Program-made: the position numbers and the translations under genes
Shown here: positions 1 to 56,360 of the stretch, in pieces
Layout: every line of letters starts with the position of its first letter
Position numbering within the stretch: position 1 is the first letter of the stretch
NCBI GenBank assembly: GCA_030704615.1
Contig: CM060734.1
Coordinates: forward strand, 38,192,001 to 38,256,000
Direction: 5' to 3'
Origin: Takakia lepidozioides
Taxonomy: Eukaryota; Plantae; Bryophyta
DNA length: 64,000 nucleotides
The notes under the pieces: generated by a model
Database searches by the model: none
Seen by the model: the letters and a program-made list of their open reading frames with translations, nothing else
What the model was told of the DNA's origin: nothing

Positions 1-104
1 CTATCTGCAGTTGAAGGTTTACAATTCTGTCAAAAAAAGGGCATTTCAAAGTGAAGTTGCCTGCTGAAAACCAAGTGACAACAGTAAGGGGTAAAGCAGT
101 TCAC

Positions 105-1555
105 CTGTAGGTAGATAGTCATCTCAAGCTCCTCACGTTCAAAGCCCTCCTTCACAGCACAACGCTTCCCATCTGTGCAGCACTCAAGGCCTCCGAGATA
201 ACTTTCTAATAAGGGATCTCCATTGGAGTCCACAGTCACATTGAAGAGATCACACCTACGAGTCCTCCCAAATTAGAACAACCATACAACAGATGCAAGT
301 ACCCATTACACAATCATAGTATGATGTGCTCATCACTATCAAGTGAATGAGACGAGTAGCAAAATGGTTCAGGCACTAATGACATCGTGGCAGTACACTG
401 ACCCACTAGATTCTTCTTTACTTTCTACTTTCCTTCTCGATACTGTTAACACGGCACATGATTACTTTGATAGTCTCTACTTCCGAGCTATCTGTGATGT
501 CACGAGCAAATTTGATATTACTCTACAGTGTAGTTTGATAAGCTCGCCCTCACTCTTTTTCCCCCATGCCTTTATCTCTCGACAGCGTTTCACAGCACAT
601 TTAAAAAAGACGTGTGTCCACCTGCCGCACGCTAGGGGGCTGGAGGAGCAGTGCTGCAATCGATCTCATGCTTTTAAAATGACATCAACATCGGCCCATA
701 AGTTACCACTTAGTTCCCTACAAAGGATTCATGTGGTCGGCTATGGCTCAGTGCCTGCATGTTAATGGAAATTATGGGCTGAGTAAACCAGGCAGGCTCC
801 ACCCATTGGGAGGGCATTTAGTAACTGGCGGGAGGCCCTTATATTCTGTCTTTCTGAGGAAAACTTCCTCAAAACATTGTTCAGGATTTCCGAGAAGAGC
901 AGAATAGAACTAACCGACACTCAGTGCACCCCATTTTGTTGACGGCGCCCCGTGTGTCAATGCCGTGGACATTAAGAATCCAGATCGGCTCGTAACCCTC
1001 AGTAAGCATGGAAGGAGCTGCAGTCTCTCTTGCGAAGGGCGCGGGAATAGTGAAATTGGTGCGCCTGGTCTCTGCACCAGCACCAAAGAACTGCATCAAC
1101 CTCTGTCCGTCTGAGAGCTTCACGCCAGTGCCAGCAGCTGCCAGTGAGGCAGCTTGTGAGGTGAAGTAAGACGGAGTGTGCTTCTTCTCCATAGATTTCA
1201 GTAGCATCTCCTTGTGGGTGTCTACATCGTTGCTCGGTACAGCGAACTCATACATGCCCCAGTGGTGAAGGTACACATCGGTCAGAGGCACAGGCACGCC
1301 CTTCTCGTCCACAAGCTCCGCATGGAAGTCCCTAAGTCCCAGACGGCCCTTCGGAGCATCCATCTCGAAATATTTGTTATTCACGTCCCCAGGATGGAAC
1401 GTCAGTGGACGAGACAAAAAGGTTTTCTTCTGCAACCCACTAGCCTGCAGCGATTCACAAGCACTACCTCCCTCCTGCACAAATCCCCGCGCTGCAGCAC
1501 CTCCCCCTACCGCACACAGCAGTGCCACCATCCACAGCTGCGCTCTGCACTCCAT
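105..1555 (-). CDS. SURNod19 (stress up-regulated Nod 19)-like secreted protein; exons 915-1555 and 105-255, gene continues off the left edge
   Basis: ATG at 1555 followed by a signal-peptide-like segment (MECRAQLWMVALLCAVGG); family motifs YLHHW, FFGAGAETRRT, LNVHGIDTRG..GCTECR|CDLFNVT and YLGGLECC. The GT-AG intron 256-914 keeps the frame (CG|G = Arg); next donor GT at 104. Confidence 0.85.
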
Positions 1556-1639
1556 CACACCTGCTTGCCCCCACCAAACCACCCCCTCTTCAACCAAACT
1601 GCAGCACCGGATCGCCGATCGTCTCTACGAGACCCATCG

Positions 1640-4600
1640 ATGTCATCTAAGTCCAAATGCATTTTTTTTTCCACAGAGCTTACGACCAGATTTGAACCGC
1701 AGACCTTTCCCTTGATATCTCTCTTCTCAAGGCTCCAACCATTGTCCTTGGATTTCCCACTTTGCAATTTTTTGGGATTTTTTCAGCAACCCAAAGTACT
1801 TGAAATTCCACCTTCCCCTCTTTAAAAAAAAAAGGAAGGATATATAATATATATTGGCATGAACATTGATACTAATGAGAGACATCTCCTACTAATGAGA
1901 GACTCCTTCTTCTCGGCTCTCCTGGATGTTCTGGTACCCTAAGGCTTCTCTTCTCTCACTAGGATAATTCCATCAGGCTTCTTGGAACCTTCTAATCTTT
2001 AGTCCTTCTCTAGTGTCGAACTCCTGGTGTATTGCAGTCCCATTATCACTCCTCCGATTCTCCGTTCAGGCCTTATGGCAGCCTAGGGGCCTATGAGGGT
2101 TCTAAATTTTTTTTCCCTTCCATAATTCAAATAAAGTTAATATGGGCTTCCTTCCCTTTCACCTATAATAATAATAATAATAATAAAAAATCAGTTCTAA
2201 AATCTGAAAACTAATAGAGATGTGACTTACAAAGATTATTTTATTTGTCCATAATATTGCAAAACGAGTTTTAACAAAAAAGATATAGAAAACATATCAT
2301 CATTCATACTAGGGTAGCCATGTGTCGTTGGCCCAAGTGTCAAGTGTCATCTAAGCCCAAGCGCAATCTCCTATGTACGCAAGTTAGTCTCTTATGTCGA
2401 GGCCCAAGTGCGACCTCTAGGGTAGCCTCTGCCGTTGGCCCAAGGGTCCAAAGTCGAAATGCATTTTTTTTCCACAAAGCCTACGACCAGATTTTGAGCC
2501 GGAGACCTTTCCCTTTATATCTCTCTTCTCAAGGCTCCAACCATTGTCCGAGGAATTCCCACTTTGCAATTTTTCAGGAATTTCCAACTACCCAAGTACT
2601 TGAAATTCCACATCTCCCACACCGCAGGTCCAAAAATTATGAGACCAAGCCCGTGCATGCTTTCCTCTTTCAACTCTTACCGTCCTTCATAAATGACTTT
2701 ACCCTTGCCCTTTGAACACCACTATTCAAGTGGCAATCAATAAGAGGAAAGCAGGGTTTAATAATAATACATGTATTATGTATTATTATTATTATCTTAT
2801 TTTTCAAAAAACTTGTATGACAAATAGAATAATCTTTGTAGTCATATCCCTATTAGTTTTAAATTTTAGAACTGATTTAAGATTATTATTATCAATATAT
2901 GAAGCGAGATGTTTGAGACGTTTGTTTTATTTTGTAGATTTGAGATGTCCCAAACTCCGGGGCCCCACCCTCAGTGCTTTGTACCGTTGGAAAGCCCTCG
3001 ATGAGGAGGGGTGGTGGCTTGGTCTCATGATTTTTGGACCTACAGTGTGGGAGATGTGGAATTTCAAGTATTTTGGGTAGCTGGAAATTCATGAAAAATT
3101 GCAAAGTGGGCATTCGTTGGAGCCTCGACATGAGAGATATCAAAGGAAAGGTCTCCGGTTCAAATCTGGTCATAGGCTCTGCGGGAAAAAAATGATTAGA
3201 TATGATTGATGCTATTGGACTTAGATAATATTGGACACTTGGGCCAAAGGCACATGCTACCCTAGAGGTCGCACTTGGGCCTCGACATAGGAGACACAAT
3301 TGTATACATATAGATTGCACTTGGACTTAGATGACAAGTTGGACACTTGGGCCAATGGCACATGCTACCTTTGTTTTGTTTTGTGAGATGTCCCAAACCG
3401 CGAGGCCCCGGCCTTGGTGCTTGGTACCGTTGGAAATCCCTCGACGAGGAGGGGTGCTCGGGCTTGGTCTCATGATTTTTGGACCTACAATGTGGGAGAT
3501 GTGGAATGCCAAGTATTTTTGGTCGTTGGAAATTCACAAAAAATAGCAAAAATGGCAAAGTGGGCATTCCGGACAATGATTGGAGCCTCGACAGGAGAGA
3601 TATAAAGGGAAAGGTCTCTGGTTCAAATCTGGTCGTATGCTCTCTGGCAAATTTTTTTTTTGATTATATATGGGATTGCACTTGGACTTAGATGACATTG
3701 GACACTTGGGCCATGGGAGATGCACTTGGATACATGAATAGAATATTGCACTTGGGCTTAGATTTCAATTCTTCACACATAGGCCAATGGTGCAGGCGAG
3801 CCTAGAGGGTTTCTAGATATATAGGGGATTGCACTTGGACTTGGATGACACTGGACACTTGCGCCAACGGCACAGGCTATCCTAGTCAATATATCAAGCG
3901 AGACGTTTGTTTTGTTTTGTTTTGTTTTGTTTTGTTTGTTTGTTTGTTTGTTTGTTTTGTAGATTTGAGATGTCCCCAACCGCTAGGCCCCAACCCTAGT
4001 GCTTGGTACCATTGGAAAGCACTCGACGAGGAGGGGTGCACGGGCTTGGTCTCATGATTTTTGGACCTACGGTGTGGGAGATGTGGAATTTCAAGTACTT
4101 TGGGTTGCTGGAAATTCCCGAAAAATAGCAAAGTGGGAATTTCGGGGACAATGGTTGGAGCCTCGAGAGGAGAGATATCAAGGGAAAGGTCTGCGGTTCA
4201 AATCTGGTCGTAGGCTCTGTGGAAAAAAATGCATTTGGACTTAGATAACATTGGACCTTTGGGCCAATGGCAGAGGTTACCCTAGATGTCACACTTGGCC
4301 ATGTCACACCTGGCCTCGACATAGGAGACAGAGGCTATCCTAGAGGTTGCACTTGGGACTTGCCATAGGAGAGGCACTTGAATACATAGGAAATTACTAG
4401 ATGACACTTGACACGTGGGCTCACACATGGGCCAATGGCGCAGGCTACCCTAGGCCTAGATCTCCCAAAGCCTAGATCTCCCAAACAGGAAGGTCCACAC
4501 TAGACACTTGGGCCTACGGCACAAGCTGCCCTAGTCAATATATGAAACCAGACGTTTGTTGGCTCTCTTGTAGAGAGAGATGTTGAAGTCAACAGAGAAA

Positions 4601-7127: not shown

Positions 7128-7576
7128 TTGCCTCCCCAGCTAATTAAAGAATCAACAACTAAATAATCACCAACTACTGTGCTCATCACAGCACACTTTT
7201 AGTTACGGGTAGCTTGCTAACCAGCTAATGTATCACGTTCATCCGTGTAGGCAACTGTATTTTAGCTCTGGAGGTGATGTTTGCAGCAACTCGCCGAGCC
7301 TCTTCAAATATTGCCATCTGTTCAATCACAGTTGCACAATACACCCATTACACTGATTGCCTCCCCAGCTAGGTAAAGAATCAACAACCAAATAATCACC
7401 AACTACTGTGCTCATCACAGCACACTTTTAGCTATGGGTAGCTTGCTAACCAGCTAATGTATCACGTTCATCCGTGTAGGCAACTGTATTTTAGCTCTGG
7501 AGATGATGTTTGCAGCAACTCGCCGAGCCTCTTCAAATATTGCCATCTGTTCAATCACAGTTGCACAATACACCCA
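7128..7576. repeat. Tandem duplication (period 229 bp) covering the last coding exon and start of the 3' UTR of the amidohydrolase gene
   Basis: Near-identical copies 7128-7347 and 7357-7576 with a 9-bp spacer TTACACTGA. Confidence 0.9.
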
Positions 7577-10500
7577 GGAAATCACAGACAGCTGATTCAT
7601 TTTTCAAAGAACATTGACCGATATCATGCTGGATACTGCAAAGAAACAAAGATTACCTCATCAAGAGCCACAATTTTGTGATTTCGCATAACCCACCGAC
7701 CATCACACATCACAGATTGAATATTTTCTGTGCGCATGCAGTACACCAGATTTGCAATCCTGCAAGACATTGCTCAGATTGGATGATCAATGGTGTCAAT
7801 GACCGGAGTCTCTGTAGTTACCTCCCAATCCTTGACCAAACGATCTTTCCTATCCCTCTGAGGTGTTTGATTCAGAGCCTTGCAAGTATGATTAGTGAAA
7901 AACCTGTGGAAGAGACCTGAGGCAGAAGCAGTCCCTTGATTGAAGGCTATTCCACACTACACATACAAAGGTCATGCTGGGGTGAAACAATATCTTTGTA
8001 TATAAGAGGTTGCATTGGCATAGATAGTTGGGTGAATGACTGCTGTTCCACCCTTGTTTCCTAAGTTCTCCCAGAGTGATCCCTGTCTCTTTCTGTGTGG
8101 TTCAATATCTGTGAGGCCAGACTTAACTTCATTTGTGAAAGTAAGCACTCTACTGGATTGTGGTGGCCCCCCTGATCTGCTCTCCTCCCATTCCAATCCC
8201 CACTCTCCACAATACTTGGGGCACAGGGTTAATGGCTATCACCAGCAAAGTCAGATGAATACATGATTGTAAGTACCAAGAAGTCAAGAACTTACGGGTC
8301 ATGGAGAGGAAGCATTGTCCAGAGGTCAGGGTTGACCACGACCAAGTCAGCCTGGATATGGCACATTCAGTATGAAGATGACCAAATGTATCAGAAACTG
8401 AGCTTAATTACCAGCTTGCAGCAACTCTACTTTGCACGTGATCCTGTCCACTCCATCTGGTAGTCTGTTCTAGCACGATGGGGTCCATATGGGTCCCACG
8501 GCGAATATGGCCCACTTACCTGCTCCTAATGGAAGTTCATTCCACAGGGTTTGGTGTCAAGCTGAAACCTCTCTTGTTCACTCAAGCGATATTTTCTCAA
8601 AGACAGCACCAATCAGGATACGCAAGTTTGATGAAAGGCCATCTAAGAGGACTGCAATGTCCTGCCGTCTACTGAATTCAGGCAGTTCTGTAGTGAGAAA
8701 GGCAAGGTTATTGTCAAGCCATTCTAGCTATCTCCAGCCAAGATCATACCCTTTTCCCCAATTCGATGGACCCAATTTCATCTTCCCATAAGACAGCTTT
8801 AGCCCCATTGATAGTTGCCATTTCCAGAATAGTCTCTGCTGGCAGTGCAGTGGGGTCGGTGGTGCCCCTCTCATAAGCTGCCCTCCCTTTGTTGATTAGC
8901 GATGCCAAGTACATTTCATCGACTGCTCGGAAATGCAGAAAGTGTTAGGACCCAATGTATCGCAATCACAACTGATTTCTCTAATGCAGTTTGAAACTAT
9001 CTTAAAAGTAAGAGATGCAGTCAAGCCCTCCAAGTTCACTTTGGGTGCCTCACCCAGGCAACCAGAGGAACCATTTAAAAACCTGAATTCATCCAGTTCT
9101 CCGTTGATGCTAGCATTGGAGGTTCTCTACAAGAAGAATATCCCATCAAGTTAACTTAGGCTTAAAAACTTTATCTCAGGTCTATATAAACATTTCTGCC
9201 AGCGAAGATAATCACAAGACTTGTCAAACACATTAACCCGGACTTTAACACTCTAACAACCCAAAGATTACGGAAAAGAAGCAGGGGAAGTGCAGGGTGA
9301 CCTAGACTCATCCGGTTGTTTGAAGGAGCACCATCAGTTCCTAGTGAAACACACACTCCCACTCTTTGCATCTCTAAGACAGGAGCAAAGCCCAGCATGC
9401 GCATTGCTGCTGCAGGGCAATGAGAGACTTTTACTCCCTCATCTGCCATCATTTGTACCTGACTTCCCAATGCACAGACAGTCCTTAGTACAAAATTTTA
9501 TGAACAGCACATTGTCCTGTTCCTTTTTGGTCTCCACTTGTTTTTAGTATCCTTGCCCTCTGCCTTTCTCAGTTCATTGTCTCTTTCATGCATTTACAAT
9601 CAAGAGAGTGGAGCAAGCAACATACAAATAGCCCAATAAGAAAAACAGAGAAAAACAGAGACGGAGACAGAGCCCCACAGCAGTAGGTTTTCGAAGGGGA
9701 AAATGGGGAGGTGGGGAAAGGGGCATAGCAACACCTCATTTGGATTCACCCAGACAGAATGAGCAGCTAGCAGGTTTTTCCCCAAGAGTCCAATATGATT
9801 TAAGTGAGTGACAGTTCCATGTTGGACATCCCTCGTCTTCACAACCCACTCATTTTCGTAGGGAATCTCTGCCACATGCTATGACAAACCAATGAGCTAT
9901 GTTTGTTAGATATGTGCATATTTGGAAACTAAAGAGGGTATAACACTTGAAAATCATCACTCGGTTGCACTTTAGATCTTGCATCATAATGGAAGAAAGG
10001 GTCCTCAGGTACGCATGCATGGACAAAAACTTAGAATAAGGAAAGCAAGGGAACAAGCTTGGATAAGAGCATTTGCACTCCCATAGCTGAGGTTGCTCAC
10101 CATGTGAATGCCAGTGTTGTGCTTATCAGCTGCAGCTTTAGTGCGGAGCAAGAGAGAGTCGGTCGCATTCAAAATTTGGCGCAAACCAAACCAAACTCTG
10201 ATGCGACCTTCAGCACTTCCATGAAATTTCTCAAAGAGATCTTCCTGAATCTGCTTCCTTACCCAACCACCATGCCAACCACAACCTCTTGAGCAGTATT
10301 TGTACACAAAACTGGAACAAACATCTGATTGGTCAACCCTCTCCTCAAAAGACACTCTTAGACCACTTTGTAGCTTGATAAGCGAGGTAATTCCAAATAA
10401 TTACCAGAAATTTGGCAGGGAACTACCCTTACGCCCAATATTATTGCACATGCTTATCTACTTCAGTCAAGAGGTCATGATTTCCCACCTTCATACAAGA

Positions 10501-11576
10501 GTCTGTGGTCTCAGCAGCCCAAGCTGGAGGCAGCCCCTCACCGCTGTCCATGGTTGAACGGGCCAGACAGGCTCGAATACCGAGGGCCTCAATTGCTCGT
10601 GCCATTCCTGGAACATGCTGGCCCCCTGCTTCAGCAAAACATGTCACCTGTTCCCCTTGTCCATACCATTATAAGCTCTCTGAGAGATGAGATGCTAGAA
10701 AAGAGTTGTTGGGTAGCCGATGTGACCATCGTGCAGAGTTCCAGTTTGGATTTTCCATTGCAGTCATATCCCACGGTTACCAACCTCTGGTAGGTGGTCC
10801 TTTTTTCACTTGTGATTTACTTATCGAGCAGATGACAATAAGATTCAAGTATGACCGGGTCTTGCAGGAACAGCGGCAGTGATGATGTTGCAAAATCGAT
10901 GCCAACGGAAAGCTCTTTCAATCCAGTTGAGAGAACCCCATTCAATTCGAACTACTAATCAACAGGAAAGTGCGGGACAATAGAAAGGGCTCAAGTGAGA
11001 GCATACTCCGGAGTGAATCAGCTCAATGCCGCAGAGCAAAGTGGATATATACGAGTCCTCCTCTGTCATGCTAGACTCATAAGGCCAAATCCGGCCATGT
11101 AGCCAAGTCAGCAAGTCCACATCATCAGCTATCCCACGGGCCAGTTGTTGTGAGGTGTGAACATGTGTATTGATCAACCCTGTTCTCCACGCACATGGCA
11201 AACAGAAAAACAACACTGTAATCTCTCTCCTTGTCTCCCAAACCTTATCTGCAAACGGAGAATGAGACAGAATTCACAGATCAAACCCCTCCCGCATCTA
11301 GTAAACTCAATTGATGTACTCGCACATTCTCTTCAGGCTGCACTCTAAAATCACATCCGAAAAACGATTACCTGGCAGAATCCAGCGACCTGACAGGTCA
11401 ATAACTGCACTGGCGTGGGATCCATACTCTTCCAGAATAACATCGCTCCGCCCAATTGCAGTGATTCTGTCTCCGGTGATTGTCAGGGCCCCATCAGCAA
11501 AAATTCGAGCTTTGGGATCCATCGTCACAATGCCAGCACTGTGCAACACCATCACCTGGACCTTACTCTCCCCCAT
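7454..11576 (-). CDS. Metallo-dependent amidohydrolase, MTA/SAH deaminase (TRZ/ATZ family)-like, ~470 aa, 10 exons: 11372-11576, 11007-11179, 10489-10647, 10101-10250, 9735-9878, 9302-9458, 8750-8922, 8296-8351, 7657-7759, 7454-7546
   Basis: All introns are GT-AG and phase-consistent (1413 nt spliced). Motifs [11 protein letters not shown] (HxH), [33 protein letters not shown] and ADLVVV; stop TAG at 7454-7456. Confidence 0.9.
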
Positions 11577-11844
11577 CTTATCGTTCGTCTCGGATCGGAG
11601 GTCAGGGAGGATACCCACTGGGTTAGGCCGATTCTAGAATCTGTTGTGAGTGATTTGCAGGAGCATGAGAGAGGAGTGCATTGGGGGCGATCAATCTTCG
11701 CTGATGCTGCAGCGTCTCTCTCACTCTGACTGCTCTAAATGTCCATCTCTTGCATTACACAAATACACTTGGATGATGGCTGAAGCAGTCCACGTTCCAG
11801 AGTTCTTAAAAAAGCAAAAACGAGAGTAAGCTTCCCATACCGCA

Positions 11845-12546
11845 TTGATAGTGACAAACAATTCTTATGTTACTTACACCTCGTTGCTACATCTTACAAA
11901 CAATTCTTATGTAGTCTATACCTCCAAGCTACTTACAAATAATTATCACCTTGTTCAATTATCCCCACAACTATCTCCTCACCCACCCAAACCAGCGCAA
12001 AAAATATTCACAAACCTTCCCCTGCTCTCACAACCTGATAGCACTTAACCAATATTTCATCCATCCACAGACGCTCTCATCCATCCCATCATCCACAATC
12101 ATTCACCCACCACACCCTGATCCCCAATACCCAATATCCTCATTATATATCGAGCCAAAAACTTTAAAGTTTTGGTATTTCTACCACCCCAACCCAATTT
12201 ATCCCCAATATATATCCTCCATTCACTCTTTAACCACCAGCTCCACAACTCCTCATATTCACCAACCAACCTCCAAATTTATGTCCCACCCACGCATTCC
12301 CTAACTCCCTATCCACATAATCCAACCATACCCCACAAGTGGCACCAGCCCTCACCCCTTCCCGCAATCCGCGACCCATACACCCTCCCCACCCCCCAAC
12401 CCCTACCCCAAGGCGCGGCGCTACACGGATCGACCACCTCTCTACACACATAGCCCGCGTGGTCGATACCATATCTATCTTGACAAATCTAAATACTATT
12501 ATCACCACCCTCCCACGTCACTTCACTCATACATAAATGCATGTCT
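11845..12546 (+). mobile_element. 5' part of a LINE (C-rich, decayed); left boundary approximate
   Basis: Same C/A-rich composition as the LINE pieces to the right. The open frame from 12422 joins in frame to the inverted segment at 13798. Confidence 0.5.
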
Positions 12547-13798
12547 GTTGAAGTCATCTGCAAGGATGACGTGGTGGTGTTGGTTATCTGGATGGGTAAT
12601 CGTTTGGGATATATTGTGTAGTATGTCTGTTATGAGGGAGAGATCCTCGGGGTGTGAGGGCATGTATAGATGTATTATGGTGATATGACAGAATGCGGGG
12701 GGGGGGGGGGGGGTGCAGCTGGATAATTTGAAGGTGCGATCGAAGGGGGATGGGTACCGTAAGTTTTGTGGTGGTGGTGGGAGAGTGGTGTGAGCGTAGA
12801 ATTTCTAGTGCGACACCTCCCCTGGAGGGTTTGTATGGAGCAGAGCGACGAGATAGGCATTGTCGGGCAGTTAGAGGAGTGTTGTACAGTAGGTAATAGT
12901 CTGGTAGAAGCTTGTTTATGTATGAACTGCTAGTATTGTTCGTGTGTAACTTGGTTTCTTGGAGGAGGAAGATATGTGGTTTAGAAGAGTTGGTGAGGAG
13001 AGTGAGAAGGCTTTGTATACTGGTAGCCAATGACCCTACATTCCAATAAGTAATAGTTAGTGCACAGGTGTGGATATCCGGGGTGGTAGGGGTAGGGCTG
13101 GGAGACGGTGGAACCAATGATGGTTCCACAGTTTGGGTTGTTGAGGTCGGGGGGTTGTATCCAGGTATCAGACTAACTGCGGCGATTGTGGATTTGAGGA
13201 TGTCAGTGGAAATGAAGGGAATTTTGTGGGTAGCCTCGGTATGATGTGAATAAGGAGCGGTTATGGTAGCGAGATGGTCGCCTAGGGTTTTATGTATAGC
13301 ACCTGGTTGGGATTGCATCAGATTGAGGGATGCATGGAGTGAGGATAGGAGGTGAGGTGGGGCTAGGTAGTTGTGCGGATGTGGTGGCAGCCTTTTTAGT
13401 TGTAGGAGGAGGGGGCGTAGTTGGGAAGTGGAGTGGGAGTAGAGAAATCCATTACAGATTTCTGGCAGGGGTGAGATGATGATTATAAGGGAGAAGAGAA
13501 GATGGGGTTGTGGGAAGGATTTAAATTTTTGTAGTGCTTTAGAGAATGCTAGGTAATGGCTATGGGGAGCTCGAAGGTAGTGATGATTTGTGTGGGTGTG
13601 TGGGCGGCGGGAGGGTGTGGCGGGAAGAAGGGCGTGAAGTGGTCACCAATGTGTCTATACTTATGCATGAGCGACGAGGTGTCTGGTTGGAAGTATAATG
13701 AGTATCTGTCTTGCGTGTCGGCGGGAAGATTCTGAATAATGTTCTGAATAGATGTAGGCCCAAGGTTAGGGTGTATGTCACCACAACGTAGTAATATT
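12547..13798 (-). mobile_element. Inverted LINE segment: 2A-like motif plus N-terminal half of APE endonuclease (pseudogene)
   Basis: ORF 12584-13318 has TITYWNVGS, IFLLQETKL and GGVA; another frame ends ILADDFN at 12547. LILLRCGDIHPNLGP at 13800-13756. Confidence 0.8.
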
Positions 13799-15699
13799 AG
13801 ACACTACAACAGATTGCGGCTTTTACGTCTCTGTGTTATGATTGCAAATGCAGTTATGGAAGCCATTTACGACTTCCCGACTCTGAAGACGTAAAAGCCT
13901 AGTCAGTTGTGACATGGCAGATATGACTCTCTAGGCTGGCTGTGACGTGGCGCCTGAGCAGCTGTGGGGGTAGTCATACACGCTGGCTTTACGAATGACT
14001 GAACGGACAGTGTAGTACATGTCAGCGGCTGTGCAAGAGTGACACGTGCTTGATACAGAAAATGACACGTGGCAAAGTGTTCGCTCTCCATGAGAGTGAA
14101 CTATGACTACGGGCGTGCTAATCCAATTGCAACACGTGGCGTGTTGTAGTTTTTACACGTGGTCCCTCAGCAGATTGCCATGTGTTATGATGGGTGATTT
14201 TTTTAGGTATATTGCTTTTTTTTTTTAACATATTTGTATTTCTACAACGTGGTGTAGTACTATTGGAGAGTGAAAATAGATGTAGTCATTATTATGACTA
14301 TGATAGAAGTCATATACATGTCTATTACAACAATGAAATATAATATATAATACAAACAGGACAAGGCAGCAAAACATAACTGCAACAAGCTGAGCAAAAC
14401 CAAGAGATTGTACACCATCTCTATTTATCAATCTATTTATTATTATCATTTTTGTAGTGATCTAAAAATACATAAAATAGTCACATGTTCTCATGTGAAT
14501 TATAGTCTAACTGTAACACTTTGAAAAGTGTTCATCCAAATCTTCTAACTACTCGTGTATTCCATCAATCTGCAACCCATCAAAAACTAGGGCTTGCATG
14601 GCTTTAAGAATCACTACAGCAAGGACATCTGTTTTGTTTTCCAAGTTCTTGCATAAGATGCACCAAGCAACATTGCATTGTGAGACACTCACTTACTATT
14701 ACCCCAAAGCGTCCAGGGAAGGTCACTGAGCAACCTGCCAAGGCGGAAACAATTAAGAGAATTATCTAATACCATATATGAAAAACCAATGCCAGTGTTG
14801 TTTATGGTAACTTCTATCCCATGGACTCCTAAACAAACCAAACAAATAGGTTGGTGTGTGTTGGCGAAGTCAGATACTTCACAAAGAAACATGCACTAAA
14901 AATGAGAGCCAGGAGGATAGGAAGGTCACTCACGTTTATACAAAGACGTCTTGCCCACTGCCCAGCACCCTGCGTCACCCACACTCTATCTCTATTCCTT
15001 CAGCTATCCATGCCTCTGCACAAATCAAGTATTCATCCTTGCCTTGCTGCTAACAAATGACAATGACAGCCTACATTTGGAATAGGAAACACCCAACTCA
15101 GCGTAGCACACTAGGCGCTATGCTGAATTGCGTCTGCTACTCTCTGAAATGTAGCAGACATTCACCTTTCTGCCCCGGTTGACCCATCAGTGACTGGGCT
15201 CATATAAGTATTCATTCCACAGCTTCTCCTCATCTCTGTTACCTGTTTTTTGATACTTCCCTGTTGTCACATTGGCAGTATCATGTCAAAGTCACTCCAA
15301 ACTAGATTCACTCAACCAGCTAACTTGCAGAATTGAACATGGCAATTTAGGGCCGATTCTGATAAGAGGGAAAAACAGGGTGAAATGTGTTGAAGAAGAT
15401 GCCTTCATAAGCAGTGCCTGATTTTATCACTTGTGCCGCTGCTGCTAGTTGACCATCTACCCATGCAGGGTTCTTGTAGCTATTGATCCACAGGGAGTCA
15501 CAAGTAATCTTGTGCTTGAAATCTGGCCCTCTTGGATGAATCTGGACCCACACGAAATCCCTGCTCCTTCAGCTATCCATGCCTCTGCACAAATCATGCA
15601 TACATCCTCGCCTTGCTGCTAGCAGGTGACAATGACAGCCTAGAATTGTCAAAGCAAACACTAGCAGGGAAAATATGTTGAAGAAGGTACCTTCACCAC

Positions 15700-17000
15700 T
15701 TTCCCCATCATTTGCTTTCAGGTCTCCAAAGCCCCATCCCGCGCTCCTCCTCTGCACACCCTGCAAGCATCGCATTCCACGACACCACATCTCGTTCAGC
15801 CATACTCCCTTGGCATCCTCAATGCTCCCACATTTAGCATACATGGCCACCAGAGCAATGTTCAGGATGACATCTTGTGCTCTCTCTTTTTATGTCTCTC
15901 TAGTCATTCACGGCCAGAGAAACAGCATGATCGCGCACCTGATTGTGCAAAGGTTCAGAAACACGGCCACCATGTCACCATGGACCTGTCAGGCCAAGAT
16001 CCACTCAACCAGCTAACTTGCAGAATTCAACATGAAAATTTAGGGCCGAAAACAGGGTGAAATGTGTTGAACAAGGTACCTTGATTAGCAGTGTCTGATT
16101 TTATCAATTGTGCCGCTGCTTCTGCAGCTTCCAGTTGATCATCTATCCATGCAGGACCTATGATGGACCTCTGTGCCCTTTCCCAGAGCTGCCAGGCTTG
16201 CATTGGGCATACATGTCCACTTGGGCATAGTTCAAATGATAAGTGGTACAATTCCAGCTTTGACATTGACACCATGGATCTGCTCCATTTTCCAGGGCTT
16301 CCAGGCTCGCATTTGGCATAGATGTCCACCAGAGCAGAGTTCAGAATGACATCTGGTACATTTCAGCTTTGACAATATCACTGTGGACCTGTCCGTCCAT
16401 TCCACAGCTATCAGACTCACATTTGGCATACATGTCACCAAGGCAGTGTTCACAATCAGATTTGGTGTATAGTTCCGGCTTTGACAATGTCACCATGGAC
16501 CTCTACTCCCTTTTCTAGGGCTGCCAGGCTCGCCTAAACTTGTGTTCAGAATCACATATGGTACATTCCAGCTAATTTGACGATGTCACCATGGCCTCTG
16601 CTCTCTTTTCCAGGGCTGTTAGGCTTACATTTGGCATACATGTCCACGAGGGCAGTGCTCAGAATCAGATCTGGTACAATTCCAGATTTGACGATGTCAC
16701 CATGGACCTCTTTGCCCAGTTCTAGGGCTGCCAGGCTCAGATTTGGCATACATGTGCTGCATGGCAGTGCTCAGAATGACATCTAGTACAATTCCAGCCT
16801 TGACGATGTCACCTAGGAACTTTGCGCCCGTTTTCAGAGGTAGCATGCTCGCATTTGGCATACATGTCCAGCAGGGCAGTGCTCAGAATCATACCTGGTA
16901 CAATTCGCGCTTTGAAGATGTCACCATGGAAGTCTTTGCCCTTTTCCAGCCCGCTGCCATGCTCGCACATGCTTTGCCCCCACAAACCAACGTGATGTGG
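15700..17000 (-). pseudogene. PLS-class PPR gene fragments, including ~6-7 tandem ~111-bp copies of one motif junction
   Basis: LELGKEVHGDIVKSGIVPDLILSTALVDMYAKC, MYAKCGSIEDA and RDVVSWNAML-type motifs with many frameshifts. Confidence 0.8.
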
Positions 17001-18039
17001 TCAGGTTGAAGTACACCTCCCCGTTCCTGATTATAGGGGCACATAGAGGACCTTGAGGATCTTTGCACAAAACCATATGTAGAGAGGTAAAGGAGATAGT
17101 AAATGTCCGACATGCCAACGGCCTGAAGACAATATCCGTTCTTTGATACAATGCCTGAGTAACATCAAAGTCACTCCAAACCACCATGGATCCACCCAAC
17201 GAGCTAACTTACATGACCCATGGAGGATTTGACTGACCATGAACCCAAGAGGACCTCTTGTGTGTGCTGCTTGTGCCTGTAGTCAAGTACTGTCGGATTG
17301 GTCAGTGAGAACCACCACGGTGCATGACCCATGGAGGATTTGGCTGACCATCAACCCAAAAGGACCTCTTGTGTGTGCTGCTTGTGTCTGTCGTCAGGTA
17401 ATCTCGGATTGGGCTGTGAGAAACACCACGGTGCAGATGAGCAGGCAGAGATTGAAACACGGCCTGCTAAGACCAAGCTGACTCTCCCAAGAACCTTGTA
17501 AACATCAGGAAGAATACCAAATCATGGTATTAACAGGAGCCAACAACCCACATTTGCTGGATGGACAAACTTCTTCACATCATACATTAAGAAGAAGCCA
17601 CACCTTGCGATTGCGGTTGTCCCACCATCGTGAAGGATCTTTAAGAAACTCATGCCAGCTCTGCTCCGTGCTGCAAATTCAGGGCCGAGCGGGTAGAGAT
17701 TGAAACACGGCCTGCTGACTCTCCCAAGAATGGCGAGCTCCCAGCCGAAACCTCCTCACACACATACCCTAGTGTTTCTAGGGTTGCTTGCTTCAGATGC
17801 GAAGGTTGCTCCAACGCGGGCCTCCCATGCATGTTTGCCCTCCCTCCCACTCGCTGGCTGTAAGTCCCAGCCCTCTCTCTCTCTCTCCCTCCCTCCCGCT
17901 CTTACGCTCTAAGTCCCAGCTCCCTCCCTCCCTCCCTCCCTCCCGCTCGCTCTAAGTCTGTTCACGGCTATCGCGATTGGCAACTTTTAAAGTTTTTTAA
18001 CCTTTTTGCAAACTATAAGCAACTTTTTGATTTCTTTTT

Positions 18040-18210
18040 TTTTCTTTTTTCTTTTTTTAAAGGAAACCTCAGGCCCTTGAGGAGGGGGAAAAATTAACCC
18101 CCTTTCATTTATGGGCCATGAGACACGAACAATCCCACACACGTGGTAGGGCAGCGGGTTTGAAACCCAAACCACCAAGGTGACACACTGTGCACTTACC
18201 AGCCCATGTG
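18040..18210 (-). mobile_element. tRNA-derived SINE-like element
   Basis: Minus strand TGGTAAGTGCAC...GGGTTTCAAACCC (B-box-like), a 3' body shared with 49370-49540, and an A-rich tail. Confidence 0.5.
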
Positions 18211-18676
18211 TTTTTTTTTCAATCTTTTGCACTTTGATTATTATTATTATTATTATTATTTGAATTCATTCTAGTGGTCAGAGTCTCCGTTTTTCCAAAT
18301 ATAAATACTCATATATTAGATATATAACCAAAAAAACATACACGCGCAGTCATGTAGTGATTCTTCCATGTGATGATTTGGCAGAATGCATTAGAGTGAG
18401 AGTCATAAAGTCATATGTCCGTCTAGCAATATGCACACGACATTCCAGTGTAGCCATGACCGTGACTGGTAGTCATATCCGCCATGCCAATATTCGTGGT
18501 CAAACATGTTTGACATGTGTTGCGCAGAGTCCGGAGTCATGCAGTCGCATATACGCCTTTCTCCAGACCAGCGTTATGACTTCAAAGGCCTTTACGACTG
18601 CAAATGGCATTTCTGCCACAAATCTGTCATGACTGCGCACCCATGGGAGTCATAAAAGCCGCAATCTGTTGTAGTG

Positions 18677-20745
18677 AGAGACATCGCTATGCTGGGGCAC
18701 TCCCACAACGGAACCCACAAACCACCATCTTCTGAGGATCACGAATGGGCTCGTTTCACCCAGCAACTAGACCAAAGATACATCCCGGCGGACCATCACT
18801 ACTCTCGGTAAGGAGGCCTCAACTACTCTTCCTTAAACCTACTGGACGGGTTCTACCTCAAAACCAGCAATATTATCCCATCCTACCTCTTGAGTCACGT
18901 TCACCTTAATAGCTTATGCAACTCTGACCACTACCCGATCTCTGTCTCCCTCCCTCCCTCCCTCCCTCCCTCCTCCCTCCCTCATGTCCTTCCGGCCCAT
19001 TCCAGATGTGCATACCCACCCCCCCCCAGCCCCGCATACTCTCACCCATACCTCAAAATAACATCAAGGCCTTCCAACAACACTTCCATTCAGCCTCCTC
19101 TTATTTCATCCACAAAATCTCTCCCATACTCTCGGACTCCAATTTACTATTATCCCCAGATGCTGCCTGGAATGAAGCCGACACGACAATCAAATCCACA
19201 TTACAAGAAATGACTAAGAGTGTGTTAGTCACATGCTCTGCTCCCTCTGCCCTCTCCCAAACGACGCGATCAACACAAAACGGGGGCTATCTCACCAAAA
19301 CTCAGAAACGTGAATGGACAACGCATCTCAACATATACCACACAATACGCCGCCCGCTTGTTTTTATCCCTCCCCCCCCCCCGGTCCCCTTATTTAATAA
19401 CTGGAGGACGGACCCACGCATCACATGTTTAAACATCCTACCTATATGTCAATCAATTATGCCTCCACCTGCGGACGCCCCCTCTCTCCCTCAATGGATC
19501 GCCTCCCTCTCCAAGCTCGGACGGGAAGCAAAAAGAGCTGCTTACCTTATCACTAAACAAAAAGCCTCCGCCAACCACAAAAAAATTGTCGCCTCCTTTG
19601 GCCAACTACTACATAACCACCCTAAACGGACCCACAAAGCCATCTTCAACCCTGCCATTAACCCGCCCATTGATTGCCTCAAACACAGACTTGGGCACCT
19701 ACTAACCAAACCTGCCAACATCAACAACGAAATCTGGCTCCAAGCCTCGTCTTCCTACATACCTACTGTAGACAACTGTCTACATCTTAGCCATCACATA
19801 CCCAACTGCATGTGTAAAGTCAAACATTACCCATGGCATGATCTTGACGGCTTTTCTCTAGACACACAGGCTCCCCCACAGACCGCCTCCTTGACCTCTT
19901 CACAATTGGCCTATATGACTCGTGCGTGACAACCCCCGTCTATTCGCCATCATGGCGGACCTGGGCTACCCTATAGATGCCACCCAACTCATCGGGAACA
20001 TTTACACCAACAACACCACTGAATACACAGGTTCCTACTATGGCACCACCTCACCTATTCCCATCCTTCGCGGCACCATCCAAGGGGACACTCTGAGCCC
20101 CTACCTATTCAACATCTTTCTCGAACCTCTATTACGATGGTTTGCCCGAGGTAACTTAGGCTACCACTATAAAAGCTCCCCCAATGAAATCAGCGGTAGC
20201 ATATGCTGACAACCTCGCTATACTAGCACATAAGCCTCAACACCTCAACCGACAGGCTGACAAATTATCCGTTTTAATCAATGGTCTGGTATGGAACTAA
20301 GCCTCAATAAATGTGCGGTCATCGCCACTACCCACGGCAGTAAGCTTACAAAATCCCCGATAGCTTCCCATTGCATGCTCCATCTGCACTATCAACAAAA
20401 ATCCTTCCCCTTCTTAGGCCTGGATGAACCGTACACTTATCTAGGCATACAATTGGTTCCATCACTAACCTGGCATATCCAAAGGAGCACCACTCTTTCC
20501 AAACTAACCAATAAGAGTTTAGCTCTACTCAATACCCCGATTTCCATCCGCCCTAAACTAACTATCATCTAAAGAGTTCTCAACCCTCAAATCCAATACG
20601 CCTTTCACACGGCCCCCTTCTCTATACCAGATATCAAACTACTCGATAACAATATTATCCAACTCACCAAATGCATTTGTGGCCTACCCACCAGCACCCC
20701 TAACGTTCTTACCCAACTCCCACAAGATAATTTTGGGATTGGTTC
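18677..20745 (+). mobile_element. LINE ORF2 continuation: APE C-terminal half and reverse transcriptase (pseudogene, 3'-truncated)
   Basis: LDGFYL and NSDHYPI (APE); RGTIQGDTLSPYLFNIFLEPLLRW, AYADNL, MELSLNKC and YTYLGI (RT). Confidence 0.88.
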
Positions 20746-20761
20746 TAGCCCCCTAATCATC

Positions 20762-21300
20762 TTGGCAGAGGGATCCTCGGATTTGAGGGTCAAGACTGCC
20801 ACGGCTGCGCTATGGCAAGCTGCAGCTGCCAGGTTGACAGAGCTGCCAGCTAGGCCAGCCTTTGAGCGCGCCATGGTGACACCTGGAGTTGTCTTGTTAG
20901 ACAACCAGGATGACATTTTCTCTTTGAGTGGACCGGCAGGCAAGAGGTACCGGCCACTGCGGGTCTTGTTGGACTCGGGAGCTCAGCCGCTGATGTTGGG
21001 CAGAGCTGCTATTGCAGGTTTGGGCCTCATGGAGGCGGATATGGAGCCTTGTCCTTTCCAGATACAGACATCTCTGGGATGATCAGAGCAGGCTCGGGGC
21101 ATGACATGGCATGAGTTGGCCATTAGGCTACAGCCGGATCATCATATAGATGGCTCAGTGATGCGAGCCAAGACCATTGTGACAGATGTGGTCTCTTACG
21201 ATGTCCTCGTTGGTGGGGCGGTGTTATATCCCATGGGCTTCACCCTGGATTTTTGGGAGGAGTCAGCATCCTACCAGCCTGGATGGCAGTCAGGGGATGG
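20762..21300 (+). pseudogene. Gypsy aspartic protease domain
   Basis: RVLLDSGAQPLMLG (DSG active site) and YDVLVGG; in-frame stop at ~21080. Confidence 0.8.
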
Positions 21301-21677
21301 TCGTCGTGTACAGCTCCCTGTGACATTCATTGGGGGTGTTGCTGCTGCCCAGCGGGGCAAGATGCCAATACTAGCAGCCTTCATATCTGCAGTTAGTTGG
21401 CCTGGAGAGTTGCTGGAGGGCAATGCCCATGCAGAGGATGTGCCACCTCCAGCAAAGCAGGATGACATGCATGGTACGGCGGAGTTGTTTGCCATGGTTG
21501 CTCACACTCCATTATGGGGTACAAGCAAGGATTTGCAGCAGGCTGCTGATAGACAGGTGCAACAAGCCTGGGTAGAGGCCTTCGTACCGTCAGGAGAGGA
21601 GGAAAATGCGGTGATTGCACCAGGACCACCTCAGTTGTCGCCATTTGACACCACACCTCTTGTGTGGCAGTGCCTGG

Positions 21678-22600
21678 ATTCTGGACTTGTTTGGCGGGAT
21701 CAGCACTGGATTAGCTGCAGTGCTGCAGGCAGGTGTACGAGTTTGACGTTACATGTATGTGGAGAGGGATGAGACTGCACGAAGCGTCTCACTGCGCCAT
21801 GTTGCTCAATTGATGCAGCAGTACCCTGATTGGTTGCCAGTGTCTGCAGTTCGTGGATACCAACAAGCATTGCCAGCAGACATATCTTTGTTGGGGGCGC
21901 ATGGTTTGGAGCGGGTTGACCCTATTTACTTGGTAGTGGCAGGTTGGCCCTGCCAAAGGCATTCATCAGCCGGGCATGACAATGGGTTACACGACTCAAG
22001 GTCACACCTGTTTTGGGAAATGTTGAGGGTCCTACGTTATTTACAACTCTCCAGCATATATCTTGGAGAATGTGCCATTGATGGGTGATTCTCGGGCCAA
22101 GGTGATGGCCAGTGTGCATCAAATGCGGTCTTGGCTTGGGTTAGCAGTGTTGCTGGATGCAGCTGTAGTGGGGTCACGGGCTCATCGCCCACGACTATGG
22201 TGGACCAACTTGATGCCACCTGCACTGCTCAAGCGTGCATTTGATGGGGTGCAACGGCCACCACACCTGACGGTGGATAGCATTTTGGACATAGGGAGAC
22301 AGTTTCAGCGTGTGAGACACGATGACCGATCACCTTTGGCAGTGGTCAATAAGGTGGGTCACCCACGAACCGCATTGCCTACACTGCTCAGTTTTCCAGG
22401 ATCCCATGCTTTTCAGGATGGTGGACTTGGCCTCTTGTGGGATAGCCAGTTGCACCAATTAGTGGAGCCCAATGCTGACGAACGCGAGCGGGCGATGGGT
22501 TTTACCACTGGTACCACGGCAGTGCCATCTCTTTCTGAGGCATCACGTCGTCAGGTGTTGGGGCAAGCAATGGATCTCAATTTCTTGACCTGAATTATCA
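21678..22600 (+). pseudogene. C5-cytosine DNA methyltransferase domain inside Gypsy pol
   Basis: Motif I ILDLFGGISTG (21678), motif II YVERD, motif IV GWPCQ (21942-21956), motif VI YILENVP (~22057), motif VIII AHRPRLWWTN (~22180), motif IX ERERAMGF, motif X RRQVLGQAMD. One in-frame stop (~21744) and one frameshift between motifs IV and VI. Confidence 0.9.
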
Positions 22601-23122
22601 GCTTGGCTATGGCTGAGCAACGCCGAGTACGGAGTACACTTCCCTTGATGGTCTCCCTGCCTACCGAGACGGTACAGGCAGCGAGTGGGGGCGAACAGGT
22701 GAGGACCACAAGGACCACGAGGTGCAGGCCGCATCCATGGCACACGTGGGAGATGCTCGAGGTGCAAAAAGAGTTGGCAGCCAAGGCGGCCATGATGGAT
22801 GAGGTTGGGGATTTTTCTTGGGTTGAGGAGGTCCTCAAGGATGGGATGATGGGGCAGGATGAGACATTGTCACTGACAGAGGAGGCAGTGGTCACTGCTC
22901 AAGAGGTTGCAACATAGCAACCACGGGACGCGTCTTCTACTTCTAAGCTTGCTGGACTCAAGGTTGCAGTCACGGAGGACAACTGGGAGCTTGATGTTGG
23001 ACCTATAGTCACCGGAGGAGAAAGATGACGTATACGGCGGTTCTTGAGGGCTTACAGGAACTGCTTTGCCTTCAGTTTGAAGGACTTATGATCACTGAAG
23101 GGTCAGAGAGATTCGCATTGAA

Positions 23123-24420
23123 TTGGCTACTGACACGCCAATCTTTCGGAGACCCTATAGATACAGTGACATGGAGAGGTCCTTGATTCAGATGAGAACT
23201 CAGGACCTTTGGGAAGCTGGTTTGGTGGAGCTATCTGGGGGAGAGTATGCTTTAGCCACAGTGATGCCAGCCAAGAAGGATGTCTATGGCAATTGGACGG
23301 AGAGACGTATGTACGGTGATTACCGGCCTGTAAATTGTCAGACAAAGTCCGATAGGTATGCCATGCCGACACCAGATGAGATCTTTGATGCCATTGGGCA
23401 TGCCAAGGTCTTTAACACTTTGGATTTACGATCCGGATATCACCAGTTGCCGATCAAGGAGGCGGATAAGCAGAAGACGACATTCTGGGGGTTAAATGAG
23501 CACGGGAAGGATTGCCTATACCAGTGGCGGTTCTTACCATTTGGGCTTAAGAACGCTCCGGCAGAGTTTCAGAGAGTCATGGACAGGATTCTAGCAGGGG
23601 TGGAGTTTGTTCGGTGCTACATAGATGACATCATCATCTTTAGTGCTACGGTGGAGGAACATGAGAGACACCTTCACGTGATATTTGAGCGCTTGAGGGC
23701 GCACGGACTGAAGTTACATCCGGGGAAGTGCAAGTTTTTCCACAACCAAATTGAGTATCTGGGTCACATGATATATCCTGGAGGATTAGGGGTACAGCAG
23801 ACTAAGGTAGAGTCCATTGCACAGATTCTACGCCCCACGGATGTGAGCCGAGTTCGAGCTTTCATGGGGTTAGAAAACTATTATAGACGGTTTGTTAAGG
23901 GATTTAGTGCCATTGCAAAGGCTCTAACCAAACTGACCAAGGTAGACCAGGAGTGGCAGTGGGAAGATGAGCAAGAACAAGTTTTTCAAGAGCTCAAGGC
24001 GAGGTTGACCTCGGCGCCCATCTTGAGACGACCTATCAAGGGGCGTCCTTTTCAACCCATACAGATTTGAGCATGCTGGGGCTTGGAACGGTGCTCACAC
24101 AAGTGGATGATGAGGGAAGAGAGTTCGTAGTGGCTTAAGCTAGCCGCTCAAACAACGCTGCAGAGTCTAAGTATAGCTCATATGAGGGAGAATGCTTAGC
24201 TGCAATGTGGGCCGTGACACACTTCAGGTGCTATCTATACGGCAATCTCTTCACCCTTGTCACGTTTCATCAACCACTCAAGTGGTTGATGGAGTCAGAC
24301 AAGCTTACGGGGAAGCTTGCACGGTGGGCACTCATCCTTCAAGAGTATGACTTTCAGGTTGTGCATCGACCGGGTTTGGTCAATCGGGATGCAGATGGGT
24401 CGAGTCGCAATCCATGCACG
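23123..24420 (+). pseudogene. Gypsy reverse transcriptase and RNase H
   Basis: DYRPVN, LDLRSGYHQ, PFGLKNAP, YIDDIII, YLGH; RNase H LGTVLTQ, YSSYEGECLAAMWAV and LARWALILQEYDF. Confidence 0.93.
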
Positions 24421-24599
24421 AGCCAGCAGGATGACACTGGAGCTCGGTGGCATGGTGAGACGGACGAGGAGATGGTGCCCGGATGGCATGCATCTGCATT
24501 TCTGTATATCTTGGCAGCGGGAGGCCAGGTTGGACCTGCAACAGGGATGACTGTAGATCAAGTGTCTGAGGACCCTGAGGCCAGCAATGAGCAAGGTGG

Positions 24600-25845
24600 C
24601 GCCAAAGATATACATGAGGATTCAGCTGTGTTGGACTACCTCCGCACTGGAGACACGGCAACCACTGTGACTGCCAAGGAGAGAGATCGGATCCTACAAC
24701 GAGCCAAGAGGTTCAAGTGGGAGGGATCACACCTGCTCCAAGTGTGGGAGGATGGTCGAGTGAGGATTGTGCCTCATCCAACACAGCGGGCACGGTTAGT
24801 GCGGCATGCCCATGAGGAGTTGGGGCATTTTGAGGTGCGACGCATTCATAGTCTACTGCAGGGGCAGTATTGGTGGCGTGGTATGCACACAGAGGTGCAA
24901 CAATTTGTGGCTAGGTGCATGGTGTGTGACAGGGTGTGTGTTTCATTCAACGCCCATACTCCACAATTGCACCCTCTTCCGATCATGGGATTGGGCTACA
25001 GGTGGAGTCTTGACTTCGCAGGGCCATTGCCACTGACCATGCGCCACAACAAGTACGTGTTGGTGATGGTGGAGCACTTCTCCAAGTGGATCGAGTTGGT
25101 TCCATTGCCTGATAAAGCTAGTGAGGGAGCTGCGTATGCATTCTTGGATTGTGTACTTAGCCGATTCGGTGCTCCAGCTGAGGTACTCACGGACCAAGGG
25201 AGAGAGTTCTTGGGGGAGTTTCAGGCTTTGTGTGACAAGGCCTTGGTAGACCACCGCACTACTTCTCGGGATCGTCCTGAGGCTGATGGCTTGGCAGAGA
25301 GGGTTGTTCAGACAGTAAAGAGGGGTTTGCGCAAGTATGGCTTGCAGAAGGGACACCTAGGAGATTGGGACCTTCAGTTACCCTGGCTAGCCATGGGCTA
25401 CAGGTTCAGCAAGCAAGCATCACTTGCCTCATTCTCACCATACTTTCTTCTCTTTGGCCGAGAGCCGGATTTGCCTACATCCATTCGTAGAGAAGCTGCT
25501 ACAGTTCTTAACCTTGAGGATCCGGACGTGTGGGCACGTGCATGTGATCAGCATGCAGAGTTGTTCAAGAAAGTCATGCCCATGGCTTTCGAGAATCTTG
25601 CCATTGCACAATATCGTGATACGTTGAGGTATGCTACCATACGTGGTGGGGGCTATCGTCCTGGGATCCGGAGATTTAACCCTGGTGACTATGTTTATCT
25701 GCAACAGACTGCTCCTATGACCTTGGATGTGACTGCAGGACGTGTTATTTTGAGGGTTCGAGAGGTATTGTCCTCAGGTGTCTTGATCTTGGAGGGTCAG
25801 GATGGCATAACTTGGAAGGACCATGTGCGTAATTATGCGCCATGA
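24600..25845 (+). pseudogene. Gypsy integrase (H2C2 zinc finger plus rve core)
   Basis: HAHEELGH...CMVC, WSLDFAGPLP, LTDQGREF, DGLAER, SPYFLLFGR. Confidence 0.93.
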
Positions 25846-25908
25846 CACCTTCCGAATGTTGATGGCAGGATTGACCCAAACCTGGCAGTGGTACCTGCAA
25901 GTTTGAGG

Positions 25909-26043
25909 TGCATGTTGTGTGGGTCTGCTAGAGGGGCAGCCACCATGCTAGTGTGTGATCGATGCTTTAGAGGTTGGCATATGGGATGTTTGACTCCACC
26001 TCTTGAGATGGTTCCTGATGGGGATTGGTTATGTCCGCATTGC
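25909..26043 (+). pseudogene. PHD finger at the integrase C-terminus
   Basis: C4HC3 pattern CMLC...CDRCFRGWHMGCLTPPLEMVPDGDWLCPHC, in the integrase frame after a single TGA at 25843. Confidence 0.88.
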
Positions 26044-44610: not shown

Positions 44611-44823
44611 AGTGACGTCACGTCACGTCGGACCTGACGCTGACGCGACCAACGTCACGTCAGTTTTGCCGAAAAATCAGTAAAACATGAGTTACGTGAA
44701 AAATATGCCACGTAGGTGGACACGTTGTATTCCAAGCGACACCTTGGCAAATGAATGAATTGTTTTATAAATTACTACATCCGCCAATAGTTGAGGTCAT
44801 TTTTAAATCATTATTGTTAAATT

Positions 44824-48828: not shown

Positions 48829-49149
48829 GATACAGCTATAACTTTTGTGACCTATCACATGATGTGTAGTATGTTTCCATGGATATCCATGTTTCAGTTT
48901 GGGTACATGCATACGTATACAGAAATAAAAATGGTGAAATATGTGTACCCAAGAAAGGATTTGGTGGTGTGTGTGTGTTTGTGTTTCGTCATTACCTTTA
49001 CATTGTTGATTTCCTATTATGGTTTCAAAAGCCACAAAGGTCAGGTGCAGCTCCCAACATTTATATTCCCCTTCACAAATCCATGGGGAGTCGATACATG
49101 TGTTTTTCATCTGCCTCTCCAAACATACATACAGGTGCAAGGGGACCAA

Positions 49150-56190: not shown

Positions 56191-56360
56191 TGACCCGGTG
56201 TACACTGTCACTCTTCAAGATTCGTGGGTGTGGTGCTTGATTATCCCATATGATGGACCCAGGTGCCATGGCCAAGTAACAAACCATTAAAACATTATGG
56301 TACGAGACAAACACAATTGAGAAAATAACATTTATTCAAACATGATGTAGCGTCAGAGGT

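Follow-up and report, generated by a model that had tools for sequence, protein, structure and literature searches.

A decayed 2A/StopGo-like peptide ahead of the APE domain in a Dualen/RandI-related LINE from a land-plant genome

The window (the whole 64-kb stretch of land-plant DNA that was analysed) carries a decayed Dualen/RandI-related LINE with a 2A/StopGo-like peptide in its ORF2. The reading preferred here, to which we give a probability of roughly two in three, is that intact copies of this element skip at NPG/P, releasing a dispensable leader and an enzyme that starts at Pro. Comparison of the reading frames of the window copy with those of its relatives shows an ORF2 layout of leader, 2A, helical domain, APE and RT.

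The peptide lies on the minus strand at 13756-13800, where the bases from 13800 to 13756 translate to LILLRCGDIHPNLGP. Both this translation and the family motif identify it as a decayed 2A/StopGo-like peptide of LINE ORF2, with N-L-G-P and with His at the Glu position. L-I-L-L precedes the core, which gives the leucine-rich upstream stretch of a class A 2A; the core itself departs from the class A pattern, (D/G/C/N)(V/I)ExNPGP or a listed functional variant of it, in having His and Leu in place of the canonical residues. The APE domain begins about 237 codons 3' of the motif on the same strand (Pfam PF03372, E 0.005; PF14529, E 0.0012; both under the curated cut-offs). An earlier, sequence-only reading had placed a 2A-like motif 5' of APE in a plant LINE, and the translation and the strand of the APE domain agree with it. 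The motif is the sole one of its kind in the six frames of the whole window; when 100 windows of 64 kb were simulated with its dinucleotide composition, they contained D[IV]xxNxGP eight times and GD[IV]xxNxGP not once. A stop codon two codons before the motif closes the upstream frame, because the minus-strand bases 5' of 13801 belong to a DNA transposon, whose end they form. The 30 upstream residues once proposed for a skipping assay are therefore, in the window, transposon end and the wrong peptide.

The family state is NPGP, and the Leu of the window copy (codon CTT at 13764-13762) is decay. Contigs from four runs were aligned to 11500-14400, among which runs X1 and X2 represent one sample. 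Position 13763 is G on the plus strand (CCT, Pro) in two contigs of X1 (depth 208.9 of 208.9) and three contigs of X2 (depth 116.1 of 116.1), and the minus-strand C>T at 13763 (Pro to Leu) is private to the window copy. The suggestion that a single C>T separates CTT from the CCT of NPGP is thus borne out, and a check for NPGP in other copies found Pro in every listed contig covering 13763. The lost C had stood in a CHG context, and deamination of methyl-C is a likely cause of the change. To judge from the contigs, the His variant with Pro, an HxNPGP-type core, is present in other copies of this genome. Summed X1 depth across the LINE piece is mostly several-fold that of the flanking gene, which indicates a multi-copy LINE family, depth itself being no copy number. 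Two further runs, taken as RNA, covered the host gene end only and are uninformative on LINE expression.

Next to the LINE lies a host amidohydrolase gene with introns (7460-11576, minus strand), recognised by its similarity to land-plant proteins, to which one of its exons is 89-98% identical. With the exons summed, a Sphagnum protein tops the 89 full-length orthologs at 74%, a liverwort protein is equal in identity (74%) and the listed seed-plant proteins reach 57-72%, all of these sums being rough since the matches overlap. These matches place the locus among non-seed land plants, with a bryophyte the likely host. The 5' region of this gene and the LINE edge are spanned together by X1 record 1 and X2 record 9. 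A 220-bp tandem duplication (7128-7347 and 7357-7576, 97% alike) takes in the last amidohydrolase exon.

The LINE itself is present in three parts. Its native ORF2 leader, at 11850-12546 on the plus strand (5' edge approximate), was assigned from one X2 contig that links 12543 to 13800 on opposite strands and from a frame check: after correction for the inversion described below, it is in phase with the motif, with 3 stops in 230 codons. It contains 42-bp repeats at 11854-11944. The helical domain and the first part of APE, as far as DFN, occupy 12547-13755 on the minus strand (tblastn, Pfam and the fold of a relative's domain), with two frameshifts, near 13635 and near 12700. The rest of ORF2, comprising the end of APE, a linker and RT, runs from 18677 to 20760 on the plus strand and was assigned by similarity to relatives and by PF00078 on one piece (E 4.4e-5); about 160 RT codons are absent between 19884 and 19928, and five stops fall within the matched stretches. 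APE is split exactly, with ...DFN on the minus strand ending at 12547 and RDIA... continuing on the plus strand from 18677, where relatives read GDFNRDIAL. The relative P0001 (P denotes proteins and L metagenome loci) matches in the same two orientations, its residues 239-301 to minus-strand 12750-12544 and its residues 301-385 to plus-strand 18677-18940.

Between the second and third parts sits a 4875-bp DNA transposon (13802-18676), recognised by its terminal inverted repeats, AGA flanks and read depth, which from its terminal letters and 3-bp flank we take to be of CACTA (En/Spm) type. Its 30-bp terminal inverted repeats are 93% alike, AGA flanks both ends, and it is inserted in the leading part of the 2A peptide, at its Cys/Leu codons. 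Read depth, about 80 on the flanking gene, climbs above 100,000 (maximum 127,523) immediately 5' of the motif, and loose ends occur at 13802; the CACTA end is high-copy. The transposon entered the front of the peptide, and the block of LINE piece and CACTA element at 12547-18676 was inverted, with three letters shared at each end. Together, the matches in two orientations, the split APE and the joint of 12543 with 13800 give the intact order as leader (plus strand, 11850-12546), peptide, helical domain and APE, and then the plus strand from 18677 on. X1 record 2 and X2 record 10 span the left inversion junction without differences, the read support being for this junction only. An inversion confined to 12546-13798 is ruled out by the second transposon end and by the continuation of APE at 18677. 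From about 20760, GC-richer LTR-retrotransposon-like sequence (20761-26000, plus strand; Ty3-like by motifs read by eye) removes the 3' part of the LINE, and neither a 3' continuation nor an ORF1 was found within the 64-kb window. With its CACTA insertion, inversion, frameshifts, stops, RT gap and lost 3' end, the window copy is dead and yields nothing functional.

Several other features were seen in and around these elements. The CACTA element contains PPR-like repeat fragments at 14977-16967, labelled by eye, with similar ones at 60663-62126; one piece had no Pfam match, and the fragments within the element suggest captured gene pieces. An additional CACTA-like terminus at 14459, 658 bp from the left end of the element, is possibly that of a nested short element. 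Farther along the window are Copia-like LTR pieces (gag, zinc knuckle and integrase by motifs) at 29867-27337 on the minus strand, and dispersed short-unit tandem arrays of two families (44798-45426, 49144-50020, 58154-58523 and 53064-56191).

Relatives of the element were drawn from HMMER, cluster members, RT matches and metagenome loci. Thirty relatives with 25-43% identity came from the full HMMER search, and a word-indexed search of longer proteins with the 352-aa window ORF gave no match. The family loci number 11 of 80 fetched, 69 weak ones (20-30% identity, endonuclease only) having been left out; nine of the 11 carry one shared contig-name prefix, and the window copy is the one family member linked to a plant. 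Sixteen relative proteins could be anchored at the motif position, 13 of which extend upstream of the Pro. D-I-x-x-N-x-G-P is found in 10 of these 13 (nine NPGP, one NFGP; seven clusters at 90%), with position 14 being E in five, H in three and Q in two, and the remaining three proteins, all of one cluster, keep K-P-G-P alone. Eight of the 11 loci reach the motif position and seven have the motif, in six of these as canonical D-I-E-x-N-P-G-P, the class A 2A core; L002 lacks the motif region. Two to four Leu/Ile lie upstream of the core in relatives, and the motif-to-APE distance is 202-217 residues in all nine relatives measured. Directly after the motif, Met is present in all seven loci and in four of the 10 proteins, and absent from the window copy and the other six proteins. 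Across seven DNA sequences (six loci and the window), the codons of the six invariant residues differ at 6 third-position sites and at none in the first or second position, a pattern that rules out an RNA-level motif. A lack of conservation, which would have counted against the original claim, is not what is seen, since relatives with only 25-35% identity keep the motif at the same place. To judge from these alignments, it is a 2A-like element conserved by the family and not a chance resemblance.

The relatives also provide the parts that the window copy has lost. In P0037 a single open frame of 1271 aa consists of a 171-aa leader, the motif, a domain of about 210 aa, APE and RT; PF03372 and PF14529 score above cut-off, giving the N-terminal APE of Dualen/RandI. 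The motif is in frame inside an open ORF on both sides in L004, P0004 and P0037, and is not so in the window copy, L003 or L006. In L004 an ORF1 frame of 1276 codons (49-3876) has a stop that overlaps the first ORF2 AUG (AUG, two bases, UAG), and the 663 leader codons past this stop are free of stops, where 26.1 would be expected from shuffling and none of 300 shuffles came down to zero. The ORF1s of L003 (3-1787) and L004 are homologous (30% over 412 aa, E 9e-50), with no Pfam family found for either. In L003 and L006 the leader is closed in the motif frame (17 and 22 stops; 3 and 1 in other frames), and is frameshifted or not read through. No Rfam family reached the gathering score in L003, L004 or L006, and hence no HDV-like ribozyme was found there.

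Leaders scarcely align between relatives, whereas all 15 pairs compared align over the 200 residues that follow the motif. The window leader showed no significant likeness to the leaders of relatives. A hydrophobic start is common to the leaders of L004, P0004 and P0037 (hydropathy 1.8-1.9 over 19 residues) and absent from those of P0005, P0028, P0059 and the window, where the true starts may be missing. The domain after the Pro (L004 5891-6550; window 13755-13060, minus strand) is all-helical, about 200-210 residues long and conserved between 2A and APE. That of a relative is predicted to fold from residue 1 (mean pLDDT 80.6), and the model shows the motif at the exact predicted border between unconserved leader and folded domain. 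Searches with this domain in Pfam, Foldseek PDB and the Atlas (best there 0.77) gave no match.

Published work bears on both the activity and the distribution of such peptides. A 2026 preprint reports 2A peptides in ORF2s of Haematococcus lacustris, including Dualen/RandI, five of which were active in a reporter, one by skipping and four by fall-off with reduced protein (PMC13405545). Of the peptides assayed so far, the nearest one, LFCNTLSLLRCGDIHPNPGP, shares its last 13 residues with the window motif but for the Pro and was non-skipping in human cells; of 10 assayed HPNPGP peptides, two skipped, two caused fall-off, one only reduced protein and five had no effect (PMC13405545). Three N-L-G-P peptides with a 2A-like core are listed in the same material, two classed as skipping and one not, so that Leu alone need not abolish activity (PMC13405545). 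The expectation that His at the Glu position lowers activity is only partly upheld: the E>H change left very low activity in Crack-15_BF (PMC3708506), whereas His at p14 was >95% active in a viral context (PMC12846837).

As for distribution, 2A peptides are described in six animal and trypanosome clades of non-LTR elements (PMC3708506). StopGo is functional on plant ribosomes in constructs, and no natural use by plant viruses was found in the portion of the source at hand (PMC12846837). A class A table of about 2,000 peptides has, as available, eight Viridiplantae rows (Chlorella, Klebsormidium) and no Embryophyta (PMC12338488). Row 92 of supplement file 2 to the same paper puts an Embryophyta lineage on Ingi-1_AC, a sea-slug element according to PMC3708506; this looks like a mislabel and no land-plant precedent. 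Plant datasets are missing from the hosts given in the available part of another preprint (10.64898/2026.09.24.754024). The Haematococcus preprint speaks of ORF2 clusters "including plants and animals" with species not named in the text at hand, and a land-plant entry may be within its data; two family-specific upstream strings and the string of the window copy gave 0 matches in its four supplements, as far as these were available (PMC13405545). The sequence-only reading had not known 2A as a feature of plant LINEs. That holds for land plants, where no report was found in a literature that mostly excluded subscription papers, but does not hold for green algae, given the Dualen/RandI peptides of the preprint (PMC13405545).

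In the proposed mechanism, ORF2 would start at an AUG overlapping the ORF1 stop, an overlap seen in one relative, L004. Ribosomes would translate 170-670 leader residues and, as in known 2A behaviour, probably pause on the leucine-rich 2A peptide. The leader would then be freed at Gly, and either the enzyme would begin at Pro or the ribosome would fall off. The outcome would be an enzyme with a fixed N-terminus at low dose. A bolder version is put forward more tentatively and is, in our estimate, less probable than its negation: that land-plant Dualen-related LINEs naturally use StopGo and keep ORF1 together with 2A, with the skip freeing APE-RT from a leader that is selected to stay open and whose hydrophobic start would tether or remove it. 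The 2A would in that case be a switch of dose and localisation and no stand-in for ORF1.

It is also conceivable, at odds of about four to one against by our reckoning, that the peptide is a signal for stalling and fall-off that lowers ORF2 output and does not give two usable proteins. Abundance was reduced by 59% of tested ORF2p peptides, an effect tied to three to six upstream leucines, and fall-off with reduced protein was the result for four of five Haematococcus peptides (PMC13405545); the window copy has L-I-L-L before its core, and the leader, being unconserved, probably makes no working protein. A folded domain predicted to start exactly at the Pro, however, fits a released product with a defined N-terminus, and the full canonical core is kept in six of seven loci. 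Skip and fall-off can coexist as outcomes. More doubtful is a reading of the motif as a plain linker or inherited relic, with ORF2 beginning at the Met that follows or being produced as one fusion. The Met that follows the motif in every motif-bearing locus and four proteins would suit such a start, position 14 drifts among E, H and Q, and the leader is out of frame in two of three long loci. Yet this Met is missing from the window copy and six of 10 proteins, the invariant codons vary at third positions only, and the 663-codon open leader of L004 points to selection for read-through. A chance match, contamination or an assembly artefact is very improbable. The window motif is off canon at two places and lacks an open upstream frame, but GD[IV]xxNxGP is absent from the 100 simulated windows, relatives have the same motif at the same place, and contigs run without differences both from the plant gene into the LINE edge and over the left inversion junction; for the motif as such, simulation and relatives together refute a chance origin. 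Skipping in intact copies remains the preferred reading.

The clade of the element was assessed from its RT. In a quick tree, the window RT groups with family relatives in a clade of 24 rows at 100% SH-aLRT; the tree was limited to the 99 rows, out of 124, that span the RT stretch, and the 98 rows other than the window came from the family's own RT search, with no outgroup clade. Among the matches listed, the nearest named relatives are Haematococcus, Pleodorina and Symbiochloris proteins (40-46% identity), which bear Josephin, APE, RT, RNase H or PHD domains. Among solved structures, R2 RTs outscore L1 (E 1e-27 against 1e-14 for human L1 ORF2p), and no named plant L1 is among the 120 RT matches listed; placement in the plant L1 clade was rejected on these two grounds. 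The RT search in the Atlas gave generic RT clusters only. The description "plant LINE" stands as to its land-plant host, but the element is no typical plant L1, its RT being probably Dualen/RandI-related.

Dualen/RandI elements are defined by an RT that lies between the RLE-type and APE-type clades, by an N-terminal APE together with a C-terminal RLE and RNase H, and by a single ORF with an N-terminal Josephin-like protease. In the present family L003 and L004 have two ORFs, and no Josephin match was found in leader or helical domain. Dualen has reportedly also been found in Arabidopsis, according to its founding paper. An RLE-like end (CCHC knuckle and PD..E-K/G) occurs in 12 of 37 more distant RT relatives of at least 1600 aa. 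The family sequences end at a PF12237-like domain, short of the RNase H/RLE region, and the family 3' end was not found in viral and prokaryotic contigs. A PF12237-like (PCIF1-like) domain follows RT in the family and in algal relatives (P0071 residues 626-717, 27.5 bits against a cut-off of 31.1; P0089; P0095). PCIF1 is a cap-adjacent adenosine methyltransferase, and a PCIF1-like domain would be unusual as LINE cargo. The combination of RLE and APE is unique to Dualen in the available text of PMC9977147, and RandI is listed under green algae only in that of PMC3747384. Given the Josephin-free layout of two ORFs and a family readable only as far as the RNase H/RLE region, the element is termed Dualen/RandI-related and is not filed as a member.

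What is new here is the land-plant host, and ORF1 together with 2A; 2A in animals and algae was already described. The land-plant gap in StopGo surveys is not absolute, as this LINE of a land-plant genome with its conserved 2A shows. The family offers peptides evolved on plant ribosomes for co-expression use, and with relatives in which ORF1 and 2A occur side by side, the published proposal of 2A taking over from ORF1 as a brake on ORF2 can be tested directly. To go from algal Dualen/RandI to a land plant is a modest step, and activity in this family is predicted from sequence.

Taken against known systems, the family is closest to Dualen/RandI of green algae, which supply its nearest named RT relatives, have a 2A-like peptide before APE and share the PF12237-like domain after RT; Haematococcus P0133 has the canonical motif, as does this family. 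The family differs from them in the land-plant host of its window copy, in its separate 24-row RT clade, in the upstream ORF1 of two relatives, and in a 2A-APE interval made up of a helical domain and not Josephin. L1Tc/Ingi, Rex1, L2, CR1 and Crack likewise have a leucine-rich stretch and GD(V/I)xxNPGP in the N-terminal region of ORF2 (PMC3708506, PMC3894237), and drift at the Glu position is seen in animal elements too, with GDIHPNPGP in amphioxus CR1 elements (PMC12338488). Unlike these trypanosome and animal APE-type elements, the present family belongs to a different clade, with an RT nearer R2 than L1. In the trypanosome and animal elements 2A is linked to the loss of ORF1, for which it substitutes in a published model (PMC3894237; see also PMC3708506), whereas L003 and L004 have ORF1 and 2A together. 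Viral class A 2A peptides, including the rare ones with His at p14, have the same core octapeptide and upstream leucines (PMC12846837, PMC12338488), but here the peptide is part of a cellular mobile element.
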